This document shows positions 47,144 through 56,723 of a DNA stretch of 64,000 nucleotides, piece by piece. Numbering within the stretch: position 1 is the stretch's first letter; each line of letters opens with the position of its first letter. The stretch is taken from NCBI RefSeq assembly GCF_009931435.1, contig NZ_CP043414.1; one strand, 5' to 3'. The notes beneath the pieces are model-generated. The model was not told the origin of the DNA. It saw only the letters and a list, made by a program, of their open reading frames with translations, and did not search any database. The position numbers were made by a program, and so were the translations under genes. The stretch is from Escherichia coli (GTDB taxonomy: Bacteria > Pseudomonadota > Gammaproteobacteria > Enterobacterales > Enterobacteriaceae).

Positions 47144-49615
47144 TTAAGAATCAGCCTGACTCGGGATCAGTTTTTGCCAGATAGCTGAAACGCATTTTGC
47201 CTGGTAACGGGCGTCATCAAGTGCATTATGGCGCTCACCTTCGAATGGAATAGCCGTTCTGGCATCGAAGTCTATGGCTTTCCCCAGCTCAACGATTGTG
47301 CGTACATCGCGATCGTTGTAGTAACGCCACGGGCAGGGGATCCCCTGCCGTTCGTATGAACGGCGCAAAATCGTGTTGTCGAAGTTGGCTCCATTTCCCC
47401 AGACCTGAACAAAAAATTCACCGGAGTTTTCGTCGATAAATTCCCGCAATTGTAACAGTGCATCATCTAACGGGATTTCATCGGTCATAATGGCAGATTG
47501 CGCTTCGCGTGATTGTTTAAGCCACCATTTAATGGTGTCCCGATCAATGACTCCGCCAGCAGTTTCCAGATCGATAGTCTTACTAAATTCCGGTCCCATA
47601 TCTCCGGTTTGCGGATCGAAAAATATTGCACCTATTGAGATAATCGGGGCATCGGGATTTTTTCCCATGGTTTCAAGGTCGATCATCAGATGAATCCCCG
47701 CTCTGCTGGTGGATGTGAGATTATGATGACCGTTCGCCTTAATTAAGGGATCTGACGCCTCGCCAGTTTCACTATCGCTGGCATGATGCTGATTGCCGCC
47801 AGTGTTCTCCTTGTGCTGATGCGCAGTGCCTTCCATTTCCTCCGGATCATTTTCCTGAACTTCAGGCTGATTCTCTCCATCGAATATTTCCTGGTATGTT
47901 GCGTCACCCATCACCGCACCACAATCAGGGCAGTTGCCGCCACCGCTATGACCGCAGGCGGTGCAGATCTTTTCCGGTTCCTGTTGCACTACTGGTTCAG
48001 GTTGTTTCGTTTCTGGCTCGTTTTGTTGCGTATTTGGGCTGTTTTGTTCCGCTTTCTGGTCGTTCTGTTCCGTTTCTTGCTGGTTCTGGTTCACAGAATC
48101 GCGGGTCTGGATCCCCTTAACCCATTTCGGATCATTCGGGTCGCTAATCCCTTCAACAAATTCACCACGTGATACTGCAAGCAGTTCATCGGCGTCAGGC
48201 TGGCTGATATTGGCTGCCTGCATAATTTTGTTTACTTCGTCAGCGGTAACTTTTACTGACCCTGGTTGTGCGGTCGTGTCAGATGCACCAGTATTTTGTT
48301 GTGAACCTGAGTATGTACCGTTTTTGCGGGCGAAATATTCTTCTTTCGTGATTTCAGTAGCCCCAGCAGACAGCGCCTTATCCAGACCAGAAAGTTTGTT
48401 TGCGCGACCGTATTTTTCGCCATCCTTGTCGGTGAAGAGGAAGTAGAACGGCCCCTCACGTTCTACAGATGGTTCGACTTCCACTTTGCATTCGGTTTTT
48501 TCGTTGTCTGGAATTGCCGTTTCCACTGCATCAGTTTCTGGTACTGGCGACGAGAGAGTATCAGTTGCGCTCTGATTTGTTCCTTCATCTTCAAACACGC
48601 CCTTTGTAGTCAGGTATTCAGTAATGTATTTGTTCAGTGCCACAGGGTCTTTGTGAATGTCGATCGGACGTTCACGGACAAGGCCAAAAATAGTCTGGCG
48701 GTCGTAGCGAAGGGCATCAGGCTGTTTGCGCATTGATGCCGAGATACGCTTCCAGTCTTCGCGGTCGTTGTCGATAACTTCATTTTTTGCCCAGCGATGG
48801 ATGCTGCCGTCAATGTTTCCGGCATCTACATCACCAGGCCAGAGAGCGTAGGCCAGTTCGTCATCCAGTGTTTTCCATGTCTGCTTGTATTCGCGATGAA
48901 TGGCAGCAATGACCGGGTTGATTTTTCCTGTTGAATTTTCAGTGTGCTGTTGATTGGCTCTGGCGCGGGCGAGATCAACAACAGACGTGTATTTTCCGGC
49001 TTCCTTGCGTTCACCTTCGCGACGTTTTTTCCAGATGCGCATCTCTGCCTGAATTTCGGGCCATTTGGCACCAGGCTTACATTTATGCTTAACCCACCCG
49101 ATGGCATGCAGCTTAAGCTCCGGATACATAGCGTTAACTTCTGGCATTTTCATCAACGCTTCAACGATATGGCCGTCGAATGTTGCCATGTCTTCCTGCA
49201 ACAATTCCTGTGCGCTAATCACCATATCAACAGTGATGTTTTCACATGTGTGGAACTTAACCATGACAGCGTTCTGTACTTCAGGGGCTAGGTTGTCAAA
49301 AGTGACGTTCATCGGATCGGATTCAGTCTCGACCGGGACAAAGGAAGCAGACGCCTCATCCCAGCGGTTTTCCTGCATATATTCAGCATCCCAGGAATCG
49401 AGGGCAGGGCGGGGTATACCGGGTTTATCCTCGCAAACAAGAAATTTATAAGCGCAGTCCTGAGCAGCCGGATAATGTTCCAGGAATTGCCAGTGAAATT
49501 TTGCGCGGGCGCGACGTTCATCACCGGCTTCAATGGCAGTGGCTACAGCGACGGCACCTTCTTCCTTTATTGCCTGTTCGTCCGGAATGGCGGCGCAAAT
49601 AAAGACTTTACTCAT
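47144..49615 (-). CDS. ydfE: 823-aa early-region protein with three parts: YdfE-like N-terminus, acidic/Gln-rich linker with a CxxC...CxxC zinc ribbon, and a C-terminal DnaQ-like DEDDh 3'-5' exonuclease
   Basis: N-terminus MSKVFICAAIPDEQAIKEEGAVAVATAIEAGDERRARAKFHWQFLEHYPAAQD matches remembered K-12 YdfE, which I recall as a truncated remnant. C-terminus carries MIDLETMG, WGNGANFDNTIL and HNALDDARYQ exonuclease motifs. Zinc ribbon: CTACGHSGGGNCPDCG. Confidence 0.8.
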   Translation of the reverse strand: MSKVFICAAIPDEQAIKEEGAVAVATAIEAGDERRARAKFHWQFLEHYPAAQDCAYKFLVCEDKPGIPRPALDSWDAEYMQENRWDEASASFVPVETESDPMNVTFDNLAPEVQNAVMVKFHTCENITVDMVISAQELLQEDMATFDGHIVEALMKMPEVNAMYPELKLHAIGWVKHKCKPGAKWPEIQAEMRIWKKRREGERKEAGKYTSVVDLARARANQQHTENSTGKINPVIAAIHREYKQTWKTLDDELAYALWPGDVDAGNIDGSIHRWAKNEVIDNDREDWKRISASMRKQPDALRYDRQTIFGLVRERPIDIHKDPVALNKYITEYLTTKGVFEDEGTNQSATDTLSSPVPETDAVETAIPDNEKTECKVEVEPSVEREGPFYFLFTDKDGEKYGRANKLSGLDKALSAGATEITKEEYFARKNGTYSGSQQNTGASDTTAQPGSVKVTADEVNKIMQAANISQPDADELLAVSRGEFVEGISDPNDPKWVKGIQTRDSVNQNQQETEQNDQKAEQNSPNTQQNEPETKQPEPVVQQEPEKICTACGHSGGGNCPDCGAVMGDATYQEIFDGENQPEVQENDPEEMEGTAHQHKENTGGNQHHASDSETGEASDPLIKANGHHNLTSTSRAGIHLMIDLETMGKNPDAPIISIGAIFFDPQTGDMGPEFSKTIDLETAGGVIDRDTIKWWLKQSREAQSAIMTDEIPLDDALLQLREFIDENSGEFFVQVWGNGANFDNTILRRSYERQGIPCPWRYYNDRDVRTIVELGKAIDFDARTAIPFEGERHNALDDARYQAKCVSAIWQKLIPSQADS

Positions 49616-49707
49616 TTTGTTTTACCTCATTACAGATTTAAGGGTGAACAAATCCCTGCCATTGCTGGCATATAAGAATGAAATCGGATGTTTATTACGG
49701 AACTGTT

Positions 49708-49899
49708 TTAAAGACCTGCCGGGATTTCGTTATTATCCTGGTGAATAACTTTATCGACCGGGTAACAGTTACCGGGAATTTTCTGTTCGGTTGCTGCAGT
49801 CACACACTCCTGCATTGTCCTGTGAACACTGACTGCAATATCAACTGGCTCTCCGGAAACAAGAAAAACTGTCAGAACAAGTGCAAATGCTGTATTCAT
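49708..49899 (-). CDS. ydfD: 63-aa DUF1482 small membrane/lysis protein YdfD
   Basis: Internal start gives MNTAFALVLTVFLVSGEPVDIAVSVHRTMQEC.... Its ATG overlaps the dicB TGA (ATGA). Confidence 0.8.
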   Translation of the reverse strand: MNTAFALVLTVFLVSGEPVDIAVSVHRTMQECVTAATEQKIPGNCYPVDKVIHQDNNEIPAGL

Positions 49900-50084
49900 T
49901 GCCAGCATCCTTTTTGTATCGGACGTAAACGGGCCAACATTGAAAGAATGCATATTTTATTTAATAGCTCCCGTTCGTGTTTTCTCTTGTTAATGGCATC
50001 TTCAGTAAATACAGGGTTACTGATAGTGACACCAATTTCAAAACAACCTTCAGACGTATTAACGTTTGGTAATAACGTTTCCAT
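49896..50084 (-). CDS. dicB: cell-division inhibitor DicB
   Basis: Internal start gives METLLPNVNTSEGCFEIGVTISNPVFTEDAINKRKHERELLNKICILSMLARL... (62 aa). Near-identical to remembered DicB. Confidence 0.92.
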   Translation of the reverse strand: METLLPNVNTSEGCFEIGVTISNPVFTEDAINKRKHERELLNKICILSMLARLRPIQKGCWQ

Positions 50085-50258
50085 TATCGCGTCCTCAACA
50101 ATGAATTTTGTGATGCGGTGCCTGGTGCTTCCAGGTGACGTTAACCAGTTAACAATTAACGCCGGATACAGAGAATCCACCCATAACACTGTTTTTGGTT
50201 TTAACTGTTCCGCGTGCGCTCAGCCGCATTCACCGCATCACAAAATTCACTTTAAAAA

Positions 50259-50311
50259 GGGCGGCAGAGCAGTCACGGAGTAAAACTGATACCGCCAAAC
50301 GTCACCAGAAA
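50259..50311 (-). ncRNA. dicF: DicF small RNA (antisense regulator of ftsZ and other mRNAs)
   Basis: The minus strand reads TTTCTGGTGACGTTTGGCGGTATCAGTTTTACTCCGTGACTGCTCTGCCGCCC followed by TTTTT. This matches the remembered 53-nt DicF, lying between ydfC and dicB. Confidence 0.92.
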
Positions 50312-50652
50312 ATTGATAACAGAGGGCGTTGCAGCGGGGTTGTCACTTAAGCGTATGGTCAACCTGACAACCCGGTGTCCTCAACGGGGGAAGGAATAAC
50401 CCCGCCATACTTACCGCCGCGCCATTTCGCGGATTGCCACAACCGGAAGCGCACGGTCGACGAAAATTTAACGACAGGCTATCTATGAACCAGCTACCTC
50501 GCCGTGCGCTTTCGCGTTATGGTCTGACTTTTCAGGGAAATATCCTTTCAGTAAACTGTCAGTGCCGGATGCTCACCCGTGTCCGGCGCAAGCACTCCAC
50601 CTTACCCGTGGAGAACTCCTTAATTACCAACCTTAGCTTCGTTGGTTAGCTA

Positions 50653-50871
50653 TTAACGCGGGTATGTAATCATTCTGGCAATGGTTAATGCCGCTGCTTT
50701 TTCCAGATTGGTGATATCCTGCTCCAGAGAGGACAGATTTTCAGCCTGCTTAGCCCTGACTTCATTAGCCCATTTCAGATCCTGCGCTGCATTAATTTTC
50801 TGGTGCATCCACTCATAAAGTTCATCATTGGTATAGTCTGGCGCGATGATGACGGGTTCTCGTTTCTGCAT
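50653..50871 (-). CDS. ydfC: 72-aa prophage protein YdfC
   Basis: MQKREPVIIAPDYTNDELYEWMHQKINAAQDLKWANE.... Position and sequence as in the K-12 dicB operon. Confidence 0.8.
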   Translation of the reverse strand: MQKREPVIIAPDYTNDELYEWMHQKINAAQDLKWANEVRAKQAENLSSLEQDITNLEKAAALTIARMITYPR

Positions 50872-50900
50872 ACTGATTCCTCGCGGTGCTGTTTCGCTTA

Positions 50901-51029
50901 TCAGCCATTAGATTTTGCCGAACTGGAAAGCGCCTGTTTAAATTCGTTGAAGCTGTGAGCTTCTTCGCCTTCGGCAAGGCCTTCGAAGTATTCTTCGTAA
51001 GCCTTTTCCATGATTGTGTCGAAATCCAT
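50901..51029 (-). CDS. ydfB: 42-aa acidic protein YdfB
   Basis: My own translation gives MDFDTIMEKAYEEYFEGLAEGEEAHSFNEFKQALSSSAKSNG. Not in the ORF track (shorter than 60 aa). Confidence 0.8.
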   Translation of the reverse strand: MDFDTIMEKAYEEYFEGLAEGEEAHSFNEFKQALSSSAKSNG

Positions 51030-51030
51030 A

Positions 51031-51186
51031 TCACCCACCTGAATTTCTTTCCAGCCAGCGACGCGCTCCAGATTCGGTTTTAAACGTTTTGCTTTTGGTA
51101 TACGTCATTGCGGTGAACGTACCGTCCTGGTTGGGGAACACGCCACATACCAGAGATTCGCTGTTGCCAAGATTGATAGTATCCAT
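51031..51186 (-). CDS. ydfA: 51-aa DUF1391 protein YdfA
   Basis: Internal start gives MDTINLGNSESLVCGVFPNQDGTFTAMTYTKSKTFKTESGARRWLERNSGG. Confidence 0.82.
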   Translation of the reverse strand: MDTINLGNSESLVCGVFPNQDGTFTAMTYTKSKTFKTESGARRWLERNSGG

Positions 51187-51368
51187 GCTGACCTCATTTC
51201 CCCTTAACGCCGGGGTAGCGGAACAAAAACCTGCTGCATAGTTATTAAAGTTGTACCCTGCCGTCATGTTCTTACGCCTCGGGCTGGCTACTTAACCCCT
51301 GACCACTGCCTGGTAACTCGAAGTATTGCCCTGCATTCTGTGGAGCGGGGTGAGTTGGTATGAAAAGA

Positions 51369-51410
51369 AGGATACCCATAGGTATTTAAAAAGTAAATAC
51401 CCATGGGTGA
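51369..51410 (-). promoter_or_regulatory. PL-like leftward promoter with two operator dyads (OL)
   Basis: The minus strand has TTTACT-17-TATCCT (51397-51369). Dyads ATACCCATAGGTAT (51372-51385) and ATACCCATGGGTGA (51397-51410) fit ATACC-N4-GGTAT and are 25 bp apart. Confidence 0.5.
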
Positions 51411-51451
51411 CTTTTTGCAGTGTCTTAACTGGTGACTAGTTGTTTGGTGAG

Positions 51452-51871
51452 CTATGATGCGTTTTGTGCTTTCTTTTTACGGATTTCTTCGTAGATCATA
51501 TTGTAATACTGTTTTTTCTCTTCAAGAGTTTTTAATAAGTTATCCGCTTCACTTTCTGGCAGTTCGTCTAAGAGATCTAAAAAAATACGTTGTCGTGGCG
51601 TTAGAACCCTTGTTTCATAACTGGAGGCTGTGTTCGTTGATGATGAAACGATACCATCCATCCATCCCCGGGGTAACCCAAAGGACTCTTCGATAATCTC
51701 CACCATATCATCAGCGATCCGTTTTTTTCCCTTTTTCCCCTCTGGGTACAACATTCTTGATACATAAGAAGGCTCGCGCCCGATCTTTCTGGCCACGTTA
51801 ACCGCTTTACCATCGCATTTCTCATCACGAATTTTGATGAGTTGCTGTCGTCTAAATTCATATTTGTCCAT
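51452..51871 (-). CDS. prophage immunity repressor (functional analogue of CI/DicA; no S24 peptidase domain)
   Basis: 139-aa ORF divergent from a cro-like gene. HTH around GKAVNVARKIGREPSYVSRML. The C-terminal third (LTPRQRIFLDLLDELPESEADNLL...) resembles the DicA C-terminus. No SD sequence precedes the ATG. Confidence 0.7.
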   Translation of the reverse strand: MDKYEFRRQQLIKIRDEKCDGKAVNVARKIGREPSYVSRMLYPEGKKGKKRIADDMVEIIEESFGLPRGWMDGIVSSSTNTASSYETRVLTPRQRIFLDLLDELPESEADNLLKTLEEKKQYYNMIYEEIRKKKAQNAS

Positions 51872-51905
51872 AGGTAAATAATAGATGCGATTACTGCAAG
51901 GTAAA

Positions 51906-51946
51906 CAACCTGTGGGTATTGACTTTTGTTTACCTGTAGGTATTCT
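51906..51946 (+). promoter_or_regulatory. PR-like rightward promoter with two operator dyads (OR)
   Basis: TTGACT (51919-51924), 16-nt spacer, TATTCT (51941-51946). Dyads CAACCTGTGGGTAT (51906-51919) and TTACCTGTAGGTAT (51930-51943) fit the same ACC-N4-GGTAT pattern as OL. Confidence 0.5.
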
Positions 51947-51971
51947 TTGCTGTGTTTACTAAGGAGTAGCT

Positions 51972-52253
51972 ATGGAAGAATTAAGAATATTTCTCAATTC
52001 TCTTTCGTCAGATGAACAGCGTATGTTTGCATGCGAGTGTGGTACCAGCATCGGTTATCTAAGAAAGGCATTGAGTAAAGGTCAAGTGTTAGGGGCATCG
52101 TTATGTGTCCTTATTGAGCGAGCCAGTAATGGTGAAGTTACACGTCAGCAACTAAGGCCTTTTGATTGGATGAATATTTGGCCCGAGCTGGAAGATACCA
52201 AAACGTTAACACAACCACTTTCTAGGAGCTTGATTCATGAAAATCAAGCATGA
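51972..52253 (+). CDS. Cro/YdaS-like HTH protein
   Basis: 93-aa ORF with an AAGGAG SD sequence; first gene of the rightward operon. HTH around CGTSIGYLRKALSKGQ. Confidence 0.7.
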   Translation: MEELRIFLNSLSSDEQRMFACECGTSIGYLRKALSKGQVLGASLCVLIERASNGEVTRQQLRPFDWMNIWPELEDTKTLTQPLSRSLIHENQA

Positions 52254-52662
52254 ACACATCCGCATGGCGATGAATGCCTGGGCGCATCCGGACGGTGAAA
52301 AAGTTCCGGCAGCTGAAATAACCAGGGCTTATTTTGAACTGGGTATGACGTTCCCAGAACTGCATGACGACAGCCATCCGGAAGCCCTGGCTCGCAATAC
52401 CCAGAAAATTTTCCGCTGGGTAGAGAAAGACACCCCTGATGCAGTTGAAAAAATTCAGGCGTTGTTACCAGCGATCGAAAAGGCAATGCCACCTTTGCTG
52501 GTGGCCAGAATGCGCAGCCACAGTTCAGCTTATTTTCGGGAGCTGGTGGAGACGCGGGAGCGACTGGTGAGAGACGCTGATGATTTTGTCGCAGTGGCAA
52601 TCGCCGGTTTCAATCAGATGAACCGTGGTGGCCCGGCAGGAAATGCTGTGGCAGTGCATTGA
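52237..52662 (+). CDS. YdaT-like protein (CII-position regulator/toxin-annotated family)
   Basis: 141-aa ORF. The N-terminus MKIKHEHI, the KIQALLPAI motif and the ...VAVH C-terminus parallel Rac YdaT as I remember it. Overlaps the cro-like 3' end. Confidence 0.65.
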   Translation: MKIKHEHIRMAMNAWAHPDGEKVPAAEITRAYFELGMTFPELHDDSHPEALARNTQKIFRWVEKDTPDAVEKIQALLPAIEKAMPPLLVARMRSHSSAYFRELVETRERLVRDADDFVAVAIAGFNQMNRGGPAGNAVAVH

Positions 52663-52733
52663 GTGATAATAGCCATATCGAATCGCTTCCGGCAACTCGT
52701 GAGTAAAAAGATTCGGTATCAGAAGAGGTGAGT

Positions 52734-53804
52734 ATGGCTAACGCCTGGCTCAGATTATGGCATGACATGCCAAATGACCCTAAGTGGCGAACAATTGCCA
52801 GGGTGTCAGGGCAGCCAATTGCAACAGTGATGGCAGTGTATATCCACCTCCTGGTGAGCGCGTCACGAAATGTCACGCGAGGTCACATTGATGTCACGAC
52901 AGAAGATTTGGCAAGTGCGCTCGACGTGACAGAAGAGGTAATTGATTCAATTTTGCAGACGATGCAGGGGCGGGTACTTGATGGTGATTTAATCACTGGA
53001 TGGGAAAAACGCCAGGTGCTTAAAGAGGACAACGGCAATATTTCGCAAACCGCAAAATCTCCTGCAGAGCGCAAGAGGGCGCAGCGAGAGAGGGAAAGAA
53101 AGCGGGAACAAAATGGCGATTGTCACGGCGCATCACGAAATGTCACGCACATGTCACGACGAGTCACGACAGATAAAGATACAGATAAAGATACAGATCA
53201 AGAAGATCAAAACACTATGGTCCATGGCGTAAAAAACGCTACGAACCAGGCAGGGGATGTTCAGACCGTCAATCCTGGTCAGCCAGCAGGCACGACACCG
53301 GAAGCCGATTCAGCGTATGCGCTGAAACCCGATTCGGGCGCTGTGCAGCAGGTGATGACCCAAAGGCCGGAACAATCACACCAACTGCAGCAGCCTGAAG
53401 CCGATTCCGCCATTCAGCGGGAAGCCGATCGGGTAGTCCCGGAAAACACCGGGCTGTCTGTGGGACGAGTGGATTATCCGGATGTGTTCGAACAGGTCTG
53501 GCGGGAGTACCCGTTGCGTGCCGGAGCAAACCCGAAGAAATCCGCTTTCAGTGCCTGGAAGGCCAGATTACGCGAGGGGGTGCCACCAGAGGCCATGCTG
53601 GATGGCGTGAGGCGTTACGCAAGATACTTGGCGGCTACCGGGAAAACGGGAACGGAATTTGTTCAGCGAGCGACGACGTTTTTTGGACCGGACCGGAATT
53701 TTGAGAACCCCTGGTTGCTCCCGGTAAGCGGCACGAACAACCAGCGTTGTGTGAATCATATTTCTGAACCGGATAACGAAATTCCGCCGGGCTTCAGGGG
53801 GTAA
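52734..53804 (+). CDS. replication initiator (lambda O-like replisome organiser)
   Basis: 356 aa from ATG 52734, with a GAAGAGG SD sequence; the ORF track starts at GTG 52728. N-terminus MANAWLRLWHDMPNDPKWRTIA.... Contains iteron arrays within its own coding sequence and a conserved-looking C-terminal domain (VFEQVWREYPLRAGANPKKSAFSAWKARL). Confidence 0.65.
   Translation: MANAWLRLWHDMPNDPKWRTIARVSGQPIATVMAVYIHLLVSASRNVTRGHIDVTTEDLASALDVTEEVIDSILQTMQGRVLDGDLITGWEKRQVLKEDNGNISQTAKSPAERKRAQRERERKREQNGDCHGASRNVTHMSRRVTTDKDTDKDTDQEDQNTMVHGVKNATNQAGDVQTVNPGQPAGTTPEADSAYALKPDSGAVQQVMTQRPEQSHQLQQPEADSAIQREADRVVPENTGLSVGRVDYPDVFEQVWREYPLRAGANPKKSAFSAWKARLREGVPPEAMLDGVRRYARYLAATGKTGTEFVQRATTFFGPDRNFENPWLLPVSGTNNQRCVNHISEPDNEIPPGFRG
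52862..52900 (+). repeat. Iteron cluster A: four GTCAC(G) repeats at 10-11 bp phasing
   Basis: GTCAC at 52862, 52872, 52882 and 52893. The 16-mer TCACGAAATGTCACGC (52863-52878) recurs exactly at 53133-53148. Confidence 0.6.
53122..53214 (+). repeat. Iteron cluster B plus an A/T-rich tract: putative prophage replication origin inside the O-like gene
   Basis: (G/A)TCAC at 53122, 53132, 53142, 53153 and 53163. Immediately followed by AGATAAAGATAC x2 and an A-rich tract (53171-53214). This mirrors lambda ori architecture. Confidence 0.55.
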
Positions 53805-53844
53805 GTGTTAATTTCTGGTCATGAGGTAATTTTCAGGAGGGCTT

Positions 53845-54270
53845 GTGGCAAAAGTTTTTACACAAGAAGAGCGGGAAAAAATTAAAGGGCAGGTTGTTGA
53901 ACTCGTACGCCAGAGTGGGCGCGAGACGTTACGACAACTGGAAACTAAAACTGGGGCAACAAGATATCTGATGAGCGTTCTGGCCAGAGAGCTGGTTGCC
54001 AGTGGCGATGTATACAACTCTGGTTACGGGTTATTCCCGTCTGAACAGGAGCGTAAGGACTGGCAAAATGCCCGTAAAAAGCTCTCAAGGGCAAAGCTGA
54101 AGAAACCATCTGCGGTTGATCCGGACCTTATCTGGTCATTACCTGACGGAGAAATACGTCGCTACGATAGTTGTCTAAACATAATCTGTCGCGAGTGCCG
54201 GAAGAGCGAAGTTATGCAGCGCATTATGGCATTTTATCAGGGAAATGTTAGGTATTTTAGACGTTACTAG
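53845..54270 (+). CDS. 141-aa hypothetical protein in the helicase-loader (P) slot
   Basis: GTG start 6 nt after AGGAGG. Basic; I recognise no family. Confidence 0.55.
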   Translation: MAKVFTQEEREKIKGQVVELVRQSGRETLRQLETKTGATRYLMSVLARELVASGDVYNSGYGLFPSEQERKDWQNARKKLSRAKLKKPSAVDPDLIWSLPDGEIRRYDSCLNIICRECRKSEVMQRIMAFYQGNVRYFRRY

Positions 54271-54427
54271 ATTAAAGGGCATTAGTTCAGATATGCATTG
54301 ACATTTTCATGGCACAAGGTAGAGCTAGCGTGGTTGTTCGCTTTGTGCCAAGAGTGGTCATTGATAATATTTTGGTGGGTTACATCTGTCAATGTTTCAG
54401 GTGATATGATATACAAATAGCCAGACT

Positions 54428-54456
54428 TAGACTGGCATGCTGTTTATTTTTATATT
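54428..54456 (+). promoter_or_regulatory. Candidate sigma70 promoter for the 341-aa gene
   Basis: TAGACT-17-TATATT in an AT-rich 227-bp spacer, about 40 nt upstream of ATG 54498. Confidence 0.3.
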
Positions 54457-54497
54457 ATGGGTGTGCCACATGGATTTAAAACTTATTGAGATATGAC

Positions 54498-55523
54498 ATG
54501 GATACTTTTCATAATATTTTGCTTGAGCACATAGACAGCCTTTTAAAAGAGAGACTTGATTTATCTGGTGACGCTGATATCGAAAAAGAAATTAATAACC
54601 TAATTCCCAAAATAGTCATTGTCGTTAAAAAATCTCTTATTGGCTCGGCCAATGCAATGCTTAGAGAACATCGTTCTCTTTGTGATGAATTTGTTGAGAG
54701 AAATATTTCAAGATGGGCAGAGGCTTTTGATTTGCTCGAAACACTTATAGTGATATGCACGGAGTCCGGTGAAGAGTTCAATCGTTCTTATAGACCACAA
54801 GCTGCCTCTGAAGAGGATGTGGTTTTTGATTTAGTCGTTCGGCATCACGCAAGAGCTTGCCACATCGCCAACGAAATTTTGTGTCTCTTAAAGAATGGAT
54901 TTGCAGATGCTGCCCAAGCGAGATGGCGAGCACTTCATGAGGTAGCAGCCACAGCTATGTTTATAGCAAAGCATGGAAAAGAGTGTGCTGAGCGCTTTTA
55001 CTACCATGAAGTGGTTGATTCATATACTGGAATGTTGGAACACAAAAAGTACGAGCACCGGTTAGAAGCAAAAGGTCCAACTATTGAAGAAATAGCTGAG
55101 TGCAAAGTTCAATTTGATCTATTAATAAAAAAATACGGCAAAAAATATGCAGATAATTATGGGTGGGCATCTTATATTTTCCCTAACCATAATAAAGTGG
55201 GGTTTGGAGCTATTGAGAAAGATGTTCAGTTAGAACACATGCGCCCTTATTATAAGTGGGCGAGTCAGAATGTACACACCGGTTCCAAGGCAATGAGAAA
55301 TAGGCTTGGTCTCTGTGAAACTGGTGATGATATATTATTGGTCGGGCAAAGTGATTCAGGAATGGCTGATCCAGCCCATGCTACTGCTATTAGTTTGATG
55401 CAGATTACTGTGACACTTTTATTCTTAAAACCAACCATTGATCATGCCGTCATTTCAAAAATAATACAGGATTATTCTGATGAGATTGGAAATGTATTTC
55501 TTAAAATTGATAAGGGTAATTAA
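54498..55523 (+). CDS. 341-aa helical protein with a central Rx4H (HEPN-like) motif; possible DUF5677/AbiV-type protein; candidate defence/abortive-infection gene
   Basis: ORF in a visibly AT-rich segment. I prefer ATG 54498 over the track's TTG 54486. Motif ...HHARACHIANEILCLLKNGFADAAQARWRALHEVAATAMFI..., with R142-x4-H147 at nt 54921-54938. Second block: YYKWASQNVHTGSKAM. No TM segment or signal peptide. Confidence 0.6.
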   Translation: MDTFHNILLEHIDSLLKERLDLSGDADIEKEINNLIPKIVIVVKKSLIGSANAMLREHRSLCDEFVERNISRWAEAFDLLETLIVICTESGEEFNRSYRPQAASEEDVVFDLVVRHHARACHIANEILCLLKNGFADAAQARWRALHEVAATAMFIAKHGKECAERFYYHEVVDSYTGMLEHKKYEHRLEAKGPTIEEIAECKVQFDLLIKKYGKKYADNYGWASYIFPNHNKVGFGAIEKDVQLEHMRPYYKWASQNVHTGSKAMRNRLGLCETGDDILLVGQSDSGMADPAHATAISLMQITVTLLFLKPTIDHAVISKIIQDYSDEIGNVFLKIDKGN

Positions 55524-55808
55524 AAATTGGAAAAGTGATAGTATATTCTTGTTTTTTTACTGGTAATTAAATGTTTTTAAAGTTACTAGTTCACACCTAT
55601 CGAACGTCCGGTCTTCGCCCAAAGCGGACTAGAAGGTTAGCTTGCGTCGGATTTGGCGTATTTAAAGAATCGCTGGTGGTTACTGGTTGTTGTGTTCCAT
55701 TTCTACAGAACAAAATCACAGAAACTATACCCAATAGTTGTATCTCATCAATGATGAGAGAGCCTCATATTTATCAGGACTGGTGTACGTCCAATACAGG
55801 AGGTTGTC

Positions 55809-55898
55809 GTGCTGGTTCTCAAATGTGCGCTGGCTATTGCAGCTGTAATGGCAATTTATTGTCTTGCTGTTGTTCTTATGGATCGCCTTTCTGATTGA
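55809..55898 (+). CDS. 29-codon hydrophobic small ORF (possible small membrane toxin/peptide)
   Basis: AGGAGG (55798-55803), a 5-nt spacer, then GTG. Encodes MLVLKCALAIAAVMAIYCLAVVLMDRLSD. Overlaps the 3' part of the track's 107-aa Cys-rich frame in another phase. Confidence 0.4.
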   Translation: MLVLKCALAIAAVMAIYCLAVVLMDRLSD

Positions 55899-55905
55899 TT
55901 TTATA

Positions 55906-55934
55906 TTGGCCAGGTGACGGGAGTTAAGTAGAAT
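55906..55934 (+). promoter_or_regulatory. hok mRNA promoter
   Basis: TTGGCC-17-TAGAAT. The predicted 5' end (about 55939) begins the segment GCGGGTGCTTGAGG, which is complementary to 56315-56329 (fold-back pairing typical of hok mRNAs). Confidence 0.5.
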
Positions 55935-55999
55935 GGCTGCGGGTGCTTGAGGCTATCTGTCTCAGGCATGAACACCAAAGGCAGATAGAGAAAAGCCCC

Positions 56000-56061
56000 A
56001 GTTAACATTACGCGTCCTGCAAGACGCTTAACATTAATCTGAGGCTCAATCTATGAACGGC
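56000..56061 (-). ncRNA. Sok-like antisense RNA
   Basis: Minus-strand TTGCCT-17-TAACCT (56096-56068) inside the mok 5' region. The transcript would cover the mok start and end at hairpin GCGTC-ttgcag-GACGC (56012-56027). Coordinates are approximate. Confidence 0.35.
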
Positions 56062-56265
56062 AAATCTAGGTTAGCCTCTTACGTGCCGAAAGGCAAGGAG
56101 AAGCAGGCTATGAAGCAGCAAAAGGCGATGTTAATCGCCCTGATCGTCATCTGTTTAACCGTCATAGTGACGGCACTGGTAACGAGGAAAGACCTCTGCG
56201 AGGTACGAATCCGAACCGGCCAGACGGAGGTCGCTGTCTTCACAGTCTACGAACCTGAGGAGTAA
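56053..56265 (+). CDS. mokD: Mok regulatory reading frame (in frame with hok)
   Basis: 70-aa ORF MNGKSRLASYVPKGKEKQA+Hok, the same arrangement as annotated mok/hok pairs. Confidence 0.6.
   Translation: MNGKSRLASYVPKGKEKQAMKQQKAMLIALIVICLTVIVTALVTRKDLCEVRIRTGQTEVAVFTVYEPEE
56110..56265 (+). CDS. hokD: Hok-family type I membrane toxin
   Basis: MKQQKAMLIALIVICLTVIVTALVTRKDLCEVRIRTGQTEVAVFTVYEPEE (51 aa). Near-identical to remembered HokD/RelF. Confidence 0.92.
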   Translation: MKQQKAMLIALIVICLTVIVTALVTRKDLCEVRIRTGQTEVAVFTVYEPEE

Positions 56266-56333
56266 GAGACTTGGCGAGGGAGAAATCCCTCGCCACCTCT
56301 GATGTGTCAGGCATCCTCAATGCACCCGCACTT

Positions 56334-56358
56334 AACCCGCTTCGGCGGGTTTATTTTA
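56334..56358 (+). terminator. hok mRNA terminator
   Basis: AACCCGC-ttcg-GCGGGTT followed by a T-rich run. Preceded by the 9-bp hairpin GGCGAGGGA-gaaa-TCCCTCGCC (56273-56294). Confidence 0.75.
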
Positions 56359-56723
56359 TCTGTAAATATTTTTATAAAAATAATGCCCACACACAGCATA
56401 AAACAAAAAGTATCACAGATAAAAAAGGAGCGTAATGTGCAGATTTGTTGTTTTCCATATTTACTCACTTTAACATAATCAATATTGATATGGTTGTTGT
56501 TTCGGTGGTTTCAAACGAGATGTTATGGTGATCTGGTAAAATTGCATAACATTAAAATTTAATTTATCTAATCGCTTTTAATAATAAGCGTTGTGTTTAT
56601 CCCAATAATCTGTTGTTTGACTTTTATTCCATTAATGTAGGGGCTTTACACTGGAACCAGTTTATTTATACTTTATACGCCAGCCTGAACAACTGGCACC
56701 TGCTGCGCCAGCAGAGACAACCG

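Follow-up and report, generated by a model that had tools for sequence, protein, structure and literature searches.

The window analysed here is a stretch of 64,000 nucleotides from Escherichia coli (contig NZ_CP043414.1, RefSeq assembly GCF_009931435.1). Between positions 53805 and 56360 its list of open reading frames places four units, all on the plus strand and each where an initial annotation had put it:

53845–54270, plus strand: DUF977 protein of 141 aa, pI 9.74 (Pfam PF06163, E 2.6e-28)
54498–55523, plus strand: DUF5677 protein of 341 aa (RefSeq WP_000379313.1; Pfam match E 6e-34)
55809–55898, plus strand: hydrophobic 29-aa ORF with a GTG start, an AGGAGG SD and GRAVY 1.81
55941–56352, plus strand: full-length hok mRNA, with the leader, mok (56053–56265) and hok (56110–56265)

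That annotation read the region as a cargo hotspot for addiction or defence cassettes in which three toxin-type elements are stacked and the uncharacterised genes possibly act jointly. It correctly described the first gene as encoding a basic protein. The protein is not an unknown as had been supposed: residues 1–135 match positions 1–133 of the 134-position DUF977 profile (99 bits), and there is a further match to phrog_142 'Ren-like exclusion protein'. The gene follows the replisome organizer and lies upstream of the variable slot described below in most relatives. DUF977 is the left flank of this slot and belongs to the phage backbone, where it is part of the replication and early region.

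At the right-hand end, the proposed complete hok/mok/sok locus was confirmed, with the HOK_GEF peptide, the mok frame, the Rfam sok element, the pairing of 5′ and 3′ regions and the terminator all present. The following elements accompany the mRNA:

55906–55934, plus strand: promoter-like site for the hok mRNA, TTGGCC-17-TAGAAT (consensus scan)
55990–56096, minus strand: sok antisense gene, inside the Rfam RF01794 match
~56314–56326, plus strand: fbi complement in the 3′ part of the hok mRNA
56334–56351, plus strand: terminator of the hok mRNA

The Hok peptide (PF01848, E 6.4e-22) differs from K-12 HokD by one amino acid, and mok is a 70-aa ORF with hok in frame and a match to phrog_251 'MokW-like'. 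The full Rfam sok model aligns at 55941–56115 (110 bits compared to a gathering threshold of 59), its position 1 coinciding with the mRNA 5′ end GGGTGCTTGAGG at 55941. In the minimum-energy fold of the mRNA (-173.9 kcal/mol, z -7.75) this 5′ end is joined to the 3′ region, GGGUGCUUGAGG with CCUCAAUGCACCC. By analogy with plasmid R1 sok, the putative sok promoter would consist of TTGCCT (56096–56091), a 17-nt spacer and TAACCT (56073–56068), with an RNA extending from ~56061 to ~55990. The locus shares with plasmid R1 and chromosomal hok/sok loci the Hok/Gef peptide, in-frame mok, the sok region, the 5′–3′ fold-back and the terminator; no notable difference was found, and it is apparently intact within a phage backbone. 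These features suggest an ordinary type I toxin-antitoxin locus that probably acts independently.

The 29-aa ORF preceding hok is hydrophobic and SD-driven, as had been proposed. All 10 loci in which it is retained have it intact; the substitutions are conservative and pairwise pN/pS is ~0.34 (from non-independent pairs), and it thus represents a small hydrophobic peptide under purifying selection, as is expected of a type I toxin. The ORF is linked to hok and is a backbone feature; it is present in phages Tritos, Evi, mEp460_ev081 and HannyBb, a variant is annotated by RefSeq in strain AH01 (WP_000960667.1), and plasmid and other chromosomal hok loci lack it. No match was found in Pfam, PHROG, PADLOC or NCBIfam for the peptide, nor in Rfam for an RNA at this site, and a weak promoter-like site lies nearby on the minus strand (55927–55898). 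We consider the product likely to be a conserved small membrane peptide.

Together with the complete hok/mok/sok locus, the 29-aa ORF forms a single conserved block: sequence from 55605 onward is present in ~1,379 of 5,426 E. coli genomes, while 72 of them carry the interval in full. In relatives closer than K-12, breakpoints cluster at two places, with backbone homology ending at 54345–54371 and restarting at 55601–55615, which sets the slot edges at ~54346–54371 on the left and ~55601–55615 on the right. The slot is positioned between the replication module (replisome organizer and DUF977) and the 29-aa ORF-hok/sok block, itself followed by the rem-like gene, ydfU and Q. Two similar 24-bp palindromes often bracket it:

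54336–54359, no strand: left boundary palindrome, decayed here (GTTCGCTTTGTGCCAAGAGTGGTC); consensus of relatives GTCYGCTTTGYRYCARMAGCRGAC
55606–55629, no strand: right boundary palindrome, GTCCGGTCTTCGCCCAAAGCGGAC here; consensus TCCGCTCCTCGCTCAAAGCGGAC

Exact copies of the left consensus are present in at least 120 IMG/VR contigs, in most cases 80–100 bp past DUF977, and among inverted repeats the two palindromes rank as the top pair in the window and in loci L023 and L027. The copies in the window are decayed, and their folding was no better than that of shuffled sequence. A role as terminators was rejected, since the palindromes have no T-run and no Rfam match and the copies in the window are not unusually stable. 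Exchange of the interior most likely proceeds by recombination in short conserved flanks that often include both palindromes.

The K-12 Qin gene content given in the initial annotation (ydfX, ydfW, flxA, ydfV and relBE) was accurate when checked against K-12. The segment without nucleotide homology to K-12 spans 51225–56095 and so takes in the hok leader as well as the genes for immunity and replication; because it exceeds the slot, K-12 is a poor reference for the slot itself. K-12 Qin, with its relBE-hokD (relBEF) region, belongs to one family with the prophage in the window: its hokD shows 97% identity, beginning shortly before the start codon, and conservation extends downstream through the rem-like gene, ydfU and Q. 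K-12 Qin differs in lacking the hok leader (mok, sok), the 29-aa ORF, DUF977 and the replication genes, with relBE directly abutting hokD. K-12 relBE-hokD is a truncated derivative of a fuller locus found elsewhere, in which swappable cargo lies upstream of a complete hok/sok.

Across isolated phages and the Qin-like prophages of other E. coli, the interval from DUF977 to hokD holds many different cargos: viral contigs yield at least 20 clusters of them and E. coli genomes more than 12 annotated types; in BL21 the flanks enclose no cargo at all. Known or candidate defence genes among these cargos were called with PADLOC. In E. coli prophages and phage Tritos the slot cargos include Kiwa (KwaA 1e-101, KwaB 1.5e-159), PDC-S33 RelA/SpoT, SIR2, DUF262 NsnA/PD-T4-2-like, DUF4145 PD-T7-3-like, a SEC-C protein and PDC-S15. 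Viral contigs contribute PDC-S39, AbiH, DarG, TIR PDC-S35, GmrSD_N+HNH (GmrSD-like) and putAbiC. The SEC-C cargo was considered as a link to a neighbour of DUF5677 in Enterobacter, and the idea was dropped because the two proteins have only a C-terminal SEC-C motif in common.

The interval is thus not collinear and conserved across Qin-like prophages, one of the points on which the initial annotation had staked its hotspot proposal; flanks are kept while the interior varies, and known defence systems are among the alternatives. Two parts of that proposal required revision: the cargo in this prophage is limited to the DUF5677 cassette, and the cargos swapped are not confined to addiction or defence genes. 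In the sampled viral contigs QueH (14 contigs) and NUDIX/HAD (11) are the most frequent, and an MFS/GGCT/LysR transporter operon also occupies the slot. The data therefore support a real swap site for accessory genes, which include many known anti-phage defences but are not exclusively of that kind. Since non-defence morons are frequent, location alone is weak evidence for defence.

Conserved phage flanks around a highly variable low-GC interior of 1–3 genes, a combination of known defence genes with unknowns, and cargo that recurs in other mobile elements are also seen at P2/P4 hotspots (Rousset et al. 2022, PMC9122126) and at prophage hotspots (Vassallo et al. 2022, bioRxiv 10.1101/2022.05.12.491691). 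Unlike those hotspots, this slot lies between DUF977 and hokD in a lambdoid Qin-type backbone, takes many non-defence morons and often has the 24-bp palindromes. No description of this particular slot was found in the searchable literature. It is now delimited to within a few tens of bases in a prophage type that is very common in E. coli, with the right-hand block present in about a quarter of complete genomes, and so is open to systematic mining for new defence genes, as was done with the P2 and P4 hotspots.

The cargo in the window is a single-gene cassette:

54361–55631, plus strand: DUF5677 cargo cassette, 1.27 kb, 37.5% GC
54420–54436, plus strand: terminator-like hairpin (consensus scan only)
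54428–54456, plus strand: promoter-like site TAGACT-17-TATATT overlapping the hairpin (consensus scan only)

The gene was rightly described as AT-rich, having 38.5% GC compared to 48% for the window. The cassette is 88.9% nucleotide-identical over exactly 54361–55631 in Providencia islands (L018–L020), where the copy resides in an integrase island and adjoins a 545-aa deaminase-domain protein, and it is also found in a lambdoid prophage of Klebsiella, at the equivalent slot. A DUF5677 gene also lies at the end of an Enterobacter island with a D5/P4-type primase, others are found near YoeB/FRG and HipA genes, and a 419-aa relative adjoins DarT-Macro. No conserved neighbour gene of DUF5677 homologues was detected. 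The hairpin and promoter-like region lies inside the cassette upstream of the DUF5677 ATG and is conserved with the gene in Klebsiella and Providencia, which suggests a regulatory function. The cassette probably brings its own upstream regulatory region, from which the 341-aa protein would be made in the prophage; the consensus scan gave no clear terminator after the gene.

These results bear directly on whether DUF977, DUF5677, the 29-aa peptide and hok/sok constitute a stacked toxin-type set, perhaps one addiction or defence system. In favour of such a set, the four units lie side by side in one orientation, the Rx4H motif of DUF5677 is conserved, the 29-aa ORF encodes a hydrophobic peptide behind a strong SD, and hok is a genuine toxin gene. 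Against this, DUF977, the 29-aa ORF and hok persist alongside at least 20 other cargos or, as in BL21, none; DUF5677 occurs without any of the three in Providencia, Enterobacter, Kushneria, Desulfuromonas and Klebsiella; and DUF977 shows no toxin signature and is located among the replication genes. The distribution data largely refute such a set, which we regard as very improbable. Hok is the only recognised toxin among the four, and the other two flanking units are, like hok/sok, backbone because they are retained whatever the cargo; joint action is contradicted by a cassette that travels alone into unrelated contexts. The interval is one genuine cargo slot in a Qin-type lambdoid prophage, the DUF5677 cassette is its only true cargo, and the DUF5677 gene moves as a unit of its own. 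This removes a misleading composite of three toxins.

The DUF5677 protein scores 118 bits against Pfam PF18928 (cut-off 27.1), and its aligned relatives match in 88 of 88 cases. The family comprises 3,534 clusters at 50% identity across Bacteria, and at least 60% identity is kept across distant phyla within it. The Rx4H motif reported at residue 142 (RWRALH) is present as part of a near-invariant RWRxLHE (R142-W143-R144-x-x-H147-E148): among the 88 sequences, down to ~32% identity, R144 and E148 are invariant, and at least 90% retain R142 and H147. The AF2 model is all-helical (pLDDT 93.5), with predicted long helices at 28–72, 74–104, 108–132 and 136–184 and the motif on the fourth. No match for the protein or its 88 relatives was found in the PDB, PADLOC or NCBIfam, and the 341-aa fold has no solved counterpart. 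Domain fusions were considered as a functional clue and set aside, as the long relatives (419–840 aa) show only DUF5677 in Pfam.

The motif agrees with the Rx4-6H pattern required of HEPN proteins. HEPN Abi and toxin RNases (AbiV, RnlA, Csm6 HEPN) would share with the modelled DUF5677 protein a helical-bundle core carrying Rx4H on the fourth helix, and their occurrence as single-gene mobile cargo of low GC is matched as well. Profile and fold comparisons of DUF5677 to HEPN members gave no significant similarity, the fold not being separable from generic helical bundles. HEPN-like RNase chemistry appears unlikely in our estimation, and a bona fide HEPN-superfamily RNase toxin, either self-inhibited or forming half of an unrecognised toxin-antitoxin pair, is distinctly so. 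In the reading favoured below, the conserved RWRxLHE helix of the bundle core would serve as the active site, possibly of a HEPN-like nuclease.

The only published functional links of the family are Aditi and a machine-learning prediction. A Pfam DUF5677 domain is common to the protein and to Aditi DitA (Millman et al. 2022, bioRxiv 10.1101/2022.05.11.491447), a system of unexplained mechanism, and PF18928 has been assigned to the DitA cluster by HHblits (DefensePredictor, PMC13092281 Table S5). Aditi differs in having two genes, with the domain at residues 276–427 of a longer DitA, where the window has a lone gene. Membership in DitA was rejected: PADLOC gave no DitA hit for the protein with E as high as 0.1, nor for the 88 relatives with E as high as 1, and no DitB partner is adjacent, the neighbours being DUF977 and the 29-aa ORF/hok. 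Another E. coli DUF5677 protein, WP_235778200.1, possibly of a different subfamily, was scored as a predicted novel defence gene (DefensePredictor, PMC13092281 Tables S5/S10).

DUF5677 might instead be a moron or other phage-benefit gene without a defence role (a host-physiology modifier, an early lytic accessory or a counter-defence gene), placed in a slot that accepts any cargo. The prevalence of QueH, NUDIX/HAD and the transporter operon fits this explanation, as do the orientation of the gene as in the early-right operon with no clear terminator after it and a homologue in the temperate SPbeta-like Bacillus phage SPR. Moreover, the one experimentally tested DUF5677 ORF, from Enterococcus or another lactic acid bacterium and expressed in E. 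faecalis against six phages, was outside the five protective ORFs (PMC12632615). However, SPR is the sole match in 50,697 phage records, so that DUF5677 is almost absent from sequenced phage isolates, which argues against a common lytic-phage counter-defence gene. The family also has members away from phages, in integrase islands where deaminase-, DarTG-, TA- and FRG-type genes lie next to them, and both the DitA domain and the prediction for an E. coli homologue point towards defence. A non-defence role of this kind seems somewhat unlikely to us.

We moderately favour the explanation that a real slot holds a self-contained DUF5677 cassette, whose product would most likely act as a stand-alone anti-phage effector of the abortive-infection type, next to an independent hok/sok. 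DUF5677 is a plausible candidate defence gene, compact, highly conserved and borne singly, and we judge the prospects of an actual defence role to be about even. A more far-reaching version, in which DUF5677 is a new stand-alone anti-phage effector spreading as a 1.3-kb cassette and the palindrome pair is a dedicated signal for cargo exchange or insulation, is rather doubtful. If true, RWRxLHE would form an active site in a fold without a solved homologue, the cassette would move among lambdoid prophages and islands that carry a primase or an integrase, and the palindrome signal would be common to several lambdoid backbones in which Kiwa, DarTG, AbiH, TIR and other systems reside.

Between 50 and 60 kb, the window carries the early-right arm of a Qin-type lambdoid prophage. 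E. coli STEC308 has an annotated prophage that is essentially identical (99.8%); it adjoins rspB and has the gene order int, xis, exo, dicB, ydfC/B, DUF1391 (YdfA-like), repressor, cro-like, YdaT-family, replisome organizer, DUF977, DUF5677, hokD, 92-aa hypothetical, ydfU and Q. The initial annotation had proposed that one accessory interval here stacks three toxin-type elements, possibly working together. All four units that it named exist on the + strand, in the following setting.

Features in and around the variable slot (window positions)
52728-54270: replication module, the replisome organizer followed directly by DUF977
53845-54270, + strand: DUF977 protein, 141 aa, pI 9.74, full-length DUF977 match
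54336-54359: left boundary palindrome, decayed copy of the left type GTCYGCTTTGYRYCARMAGCRGAC
54498-55523, + strand: DUF5677 protein, 341 aa, 38.5% GC, DUF5677 match, RWRALH at residue 142
55606-55629: right boundary palindrome, decayed copy of the right type TCCGCTCCTCGCTCAAAGCGGAC
55809-55898, + strand: 29-aa ORF, GTG start, AGGAGG SD, GRAVY 1.81
55906-55934: hok promoter-like site (consensus scan)
56334-56351: hok terminator

The limits of the slot were determined by BLAST against 12 relatives. Left-flank homology stops at 54345-54371, which is 75-100 bp past the DUF977 stop. For most relatives right-flank homology returns at 55601-55615, and for a few it does so at 55729-55856. The whole interval was found in 72 of 5,426 complete E. 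coli genomes, while the 450 bp upstream of hok (from ~55605, including the 29-aa ORF) were found in 1,379 of them. Together, the genome counts and breakpoints identify DUF977, the 29-aa ORF and hok/sok as backbone; judged by homology, only ~54361-55631 is cargo. The stack of cooperating toxin-type elements is therefore unsupported, and its "unknown" 141-aa basic protein is a full-length DUF977 protein, a family that PHROGs names "Ren-like exclusion protein". The N-terminus of this protein also weakly matches a PHROG "DNA binding protein" family.

Upstream of the slot, the replisome organizer shows a weak DnaT-like C-terminal match, and no lambda-P/DnaC-type loader gene was found in the replication module (52728-54270). 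The Klebsiella relative instead carries DnaT-like, lambda-P-like and 146-aa genes. The YdaT-family gene at 52237-52662 occupies the cII position and matches the PHROG "CII-like transcriptional activator" at 6e-46, versus 7e-10 for Pfam YdaT_toxin; the toxin label is probably misleading.

The initial annotation gave the K-12 Qin gene content correctly (dicC, ydfX, ydfW, flxA, ydfV, relB, relE, hokD, rem, ydfU, ydfT), and the interior does differ as expected, but the difference extends beyond the slot into immunity and replication genes. Nucleotide homology covers 48849-51224 (the dicB operon), returns only 14 nt ahead of the hok start codon (56096), and appears again at 56707, so K-12 differs over 4.9 kb (window 51225-56095 versus NC_000913.3 1645289-1648469). 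This block takes in the immunity genes, the entire replication module, DUF977, the slot, the 29-aa ORF and the hok leader with mok/sok. In K-12, the junction between relE and hokD falls 14 nt ahead of the hokD ATG, mok/sok are missing, and ydfX is only a YdaT-family remnant. On this alignment, K-12 is a poor yardstick for the slot.

Alternative cargos in E. coli were taken from a spread sample of genomes, with six loci checked one by one. Between DUF977 and hokD these encode a SEC-C protein, DUF7167 with hypotheticals, QueH, FRG, RelA/SpoT, DUF4209, DUF262, SMEK with a methyltransferase, SIR2, a KwaB-like protein, NUDIX with HAD, DUF4145, or RelE/ParE with an HTH protein; BL21 has an empty slot. 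PADLOC recognised a complete Kiwa system (KwaA 1e-101, KwaB 1.5e-159) and SIR2 among the cargos, assigned RelA/SpoT to the candidate defence family PDC-S33, found the DUF262 cargo NsnA/PD-T4-2-like and the DUF4145 cargo PD-T7-3-like, and detected the candidate family PDC-S15 as cargo in phage Tritos. The suggestion of a cargo hotspot is thereby supported and sharpened, with bounds for the slot and many cargos, known defence genes among them. Prophage hotspots are an established general concept (PMC9122126; 10.1101/2022.05.12.491691). No prior description of the slot between DUF977 and hokD was found in the searchable literature, Brenes and Laub 2025 lying outside this scope. It is a newly found, well-delimited cargo site that supplies a good experimental candidate, the DUF5677 cassette.

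Similar 24-bp palindromes lie at both slot boundaries. As a left/right pair they rank first among the inverted repeats of the window, and likewise in comparison loci L023 and L027.

Palindrome pairs in comparison loci (locus positions)
L023: 803-826 and 2496-2519
L021: 1994-2017 and 3795-3818
L003: 1435-1458 and 4501-4524

Consensus copies have folding energies of -12 to -15 kcal/mol; both window copies have decayed and are no more stable than shuffled sequence, and the palindromes have neither a T-run nor an Rfam match. An exact scan of IMG/VR with the left element returned at least 120 contigs. Among the matches listed, DUF977 ends 80-100 bp upstream of the left palindrome in most, and the right boundary could be placed in 80 contigs, whose cargos, 0.5-4.2 kb long, fall into 20 distinct clusters. 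Cargos in these listed matches include QueH (14 contigs), NUDIX-like with HAD (11), a 269-aa unknown (11), the candidate family PDC-S39 (9), AbiH with a 465-aa unknown (7), an MFS/GGCT/LysR operon (5), PDC-S15 (4), GmrSD_N+HNH (4), RelA/SpoT (3), TIR candidate family PDC-S35, DarG and putAbiC (1 each), plus several unknowns. Some pairs have no DUF977 or hok nearby (for example L036 with a TIR protein and L054 with DarG), and the palindrome arrangement is therefore wider than the Qin-type backbone.

The MFS transporter/gamma-glutamylcyclotransferase/LysR operon was also seen at 1459-4500 of L003 and L006 (E. coli WWCOL-256 and 40EC), between left-type and right-type palindromes. The 29-aa ORF and hokD follow it, and no DUF977 precedes it; its viral contigs are L066, L079, L085, L138 and L140. 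The operon resembles metabolic cargo of the slot, or else marks a join to chromosomal genes.

On the right, the 29-aa ORF retains its GTG start and reading frame in all ten loci that keep it. Its nine distinct nucleotide sequences differ by conservative A/V/T/I changes, with a pairwise pN/pS of ~0.34 from non-independent pairs. Phage isolates also carry the ORF (Tritos, Evi, mEp460_ev081 and HannyBb), and in strain AH01 its RefSeq entry is a hypothetical protein. A promoter-like site matching the consensus (TTAACT-18-TAAAAT, 55898-55927, minus strand) is aimed leftward into its 3′ end; if real, it could yield an antisense transcript in the fashion of type I toxin-antitoxin loci. The complete hok/mok/sok locus reported initially was borne out by a HOK_GEF match (6e-22), an in-frame mok of 70 aa, an Rfam sok hit of 110 bits (gathering score 59), the promoter-like site and terminator, and a predicted hok mRNA fold (z -7.75) in which the 5′ end base-pairs to the 3′ fold-back element. 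By sequence, this is a type I toxin-antitoxin locus of the ordinary kind, apparently intact.

The DUF5677 cassette recurs in unrelated settings. A Providencia rettgeri island contains a segment 88.9% identical in nucleotides to the interval 54361-55631, a match that takes in 137 bp upstream of the ATG and a decayed copy of the right palindrome; in the island the gene has an integrase on one side and a 545-aa deaminase-domain protein on the other. The island cassette is flanked by the 15-bp direct repeat CATTAGCTGACGTTG, with one copy immediately to its left (L018 ~5850) and the other ~35 bp past its right end (~7165), which hints at a cassette-like insertion in this island. A 77% identical gene occupies the equivalent slot of a Klebsiella lambdoid prophage, after replication genes and a 146-aa ORF without Pfam match and upstream of DinI and DUF968. 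A 69% identical gene ends an Enterobacter island with a D5/P4-type primase, adjoining a SEC-C protein, and further DUF5677 genes lie near YoeB/FRG or HipA genes. Since no conserved neighbour was found across these settings, the 341-aa form works by itself, or at any rate is mobilised by itself. The family comprises 3,534 clusters at 50% identity and is unusually conserved, with at least 60% identity kept in Sulfurovum, Nitrospiraceae, Desulfuromonas, Vibrio and Colwellia. A search of 50,697 phage records turned up a single homologue, in the temperate SPbeta-like Bacillus phage SPR (L028 5001-6122, OM236515.1 83976-85097; full-length, 29% identity over 99% of the query). The SPR gene sits among hypothetical genes, upstream of a site-specific recombinase.

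The model built from a shallow alignment was mediocre (pLDDT 72); the one from a deeper, 88-sequence alignment had pLDDT 93.5 and pTM 0.89. The predicted protein is all-helical, with long helices at 28-72, 74-104, 108-132 and 136-184, followed by shorter ones. In the larger alignment W73, L130, G134, R144, E148, W223 and H260 are invariant, and H117, E126, R142, W143, H147, R249 and P250 are kept in at least 90% of sequences. Residue conservation shows the Rx4H motif (RWRxLHE) to be real, and the model places it near the start of the fourth helix, which would correspond to its place in HEPN domains. All tests of HEPN kinship that we ran were nevertheless negative or non-discriminating: Foldseek of the model against PDB gave no match at E < 0.3, profile searches of PDB sequences and Pfam likewise yielded nothing, and hhalign against the DUF4145 cargo protein was negative.

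In searchable full texts, DUF5677 is named in two papers. DefensePredictor (PMC13092281) predicts that WP_235778200.1, a DUF5677 protein of 219 aa from E. coli, is a novel defence gene (log-odds 5.7, Table S10), and it places PF18928 at residues 276-427 in the DitA cluster of Aditi (Table S5); Millman et al. (10.1101/2022.05.11.491447) described Aditi as two proteins with a recognisable domain in neither. The PADLOC DitA models did not match the window protein, which has this domain in common with DitA but falls outside Aditi. In the RADS preprint (PMC12632615), a DUF5677 ORF enriched beside serine recombinases was assayed against six phages after cloning in E. faecalis, and was outside the five protective ORFs. 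We consider the cassette a plausible single-gene defence candidate, with a defence role having roughly even chances; a non-defence or phage-benefit moron is the less probable reading, and HEPN-like RNase chemistry specifically is unlikely. A two-gene form may also exist, as a 419-aa relative in L149 (2437-5260) follows a 501-aa gene without Pfam match after a 58-bp gap, beside DarT-Macro (DarTG), in an apparent two-gene unit recalling two-gene Aditi.

A second, smaller variable region (56353-56706) lies directly past the hok terminator; in the window it is 354 bp of 31% GC without a convincing gene. Many relatives, including K-12, BL21 and AH01, carry rem there, and phage Tritos carries a 204-aa hypothetical and an ImmA/IrrE-HTH protein.
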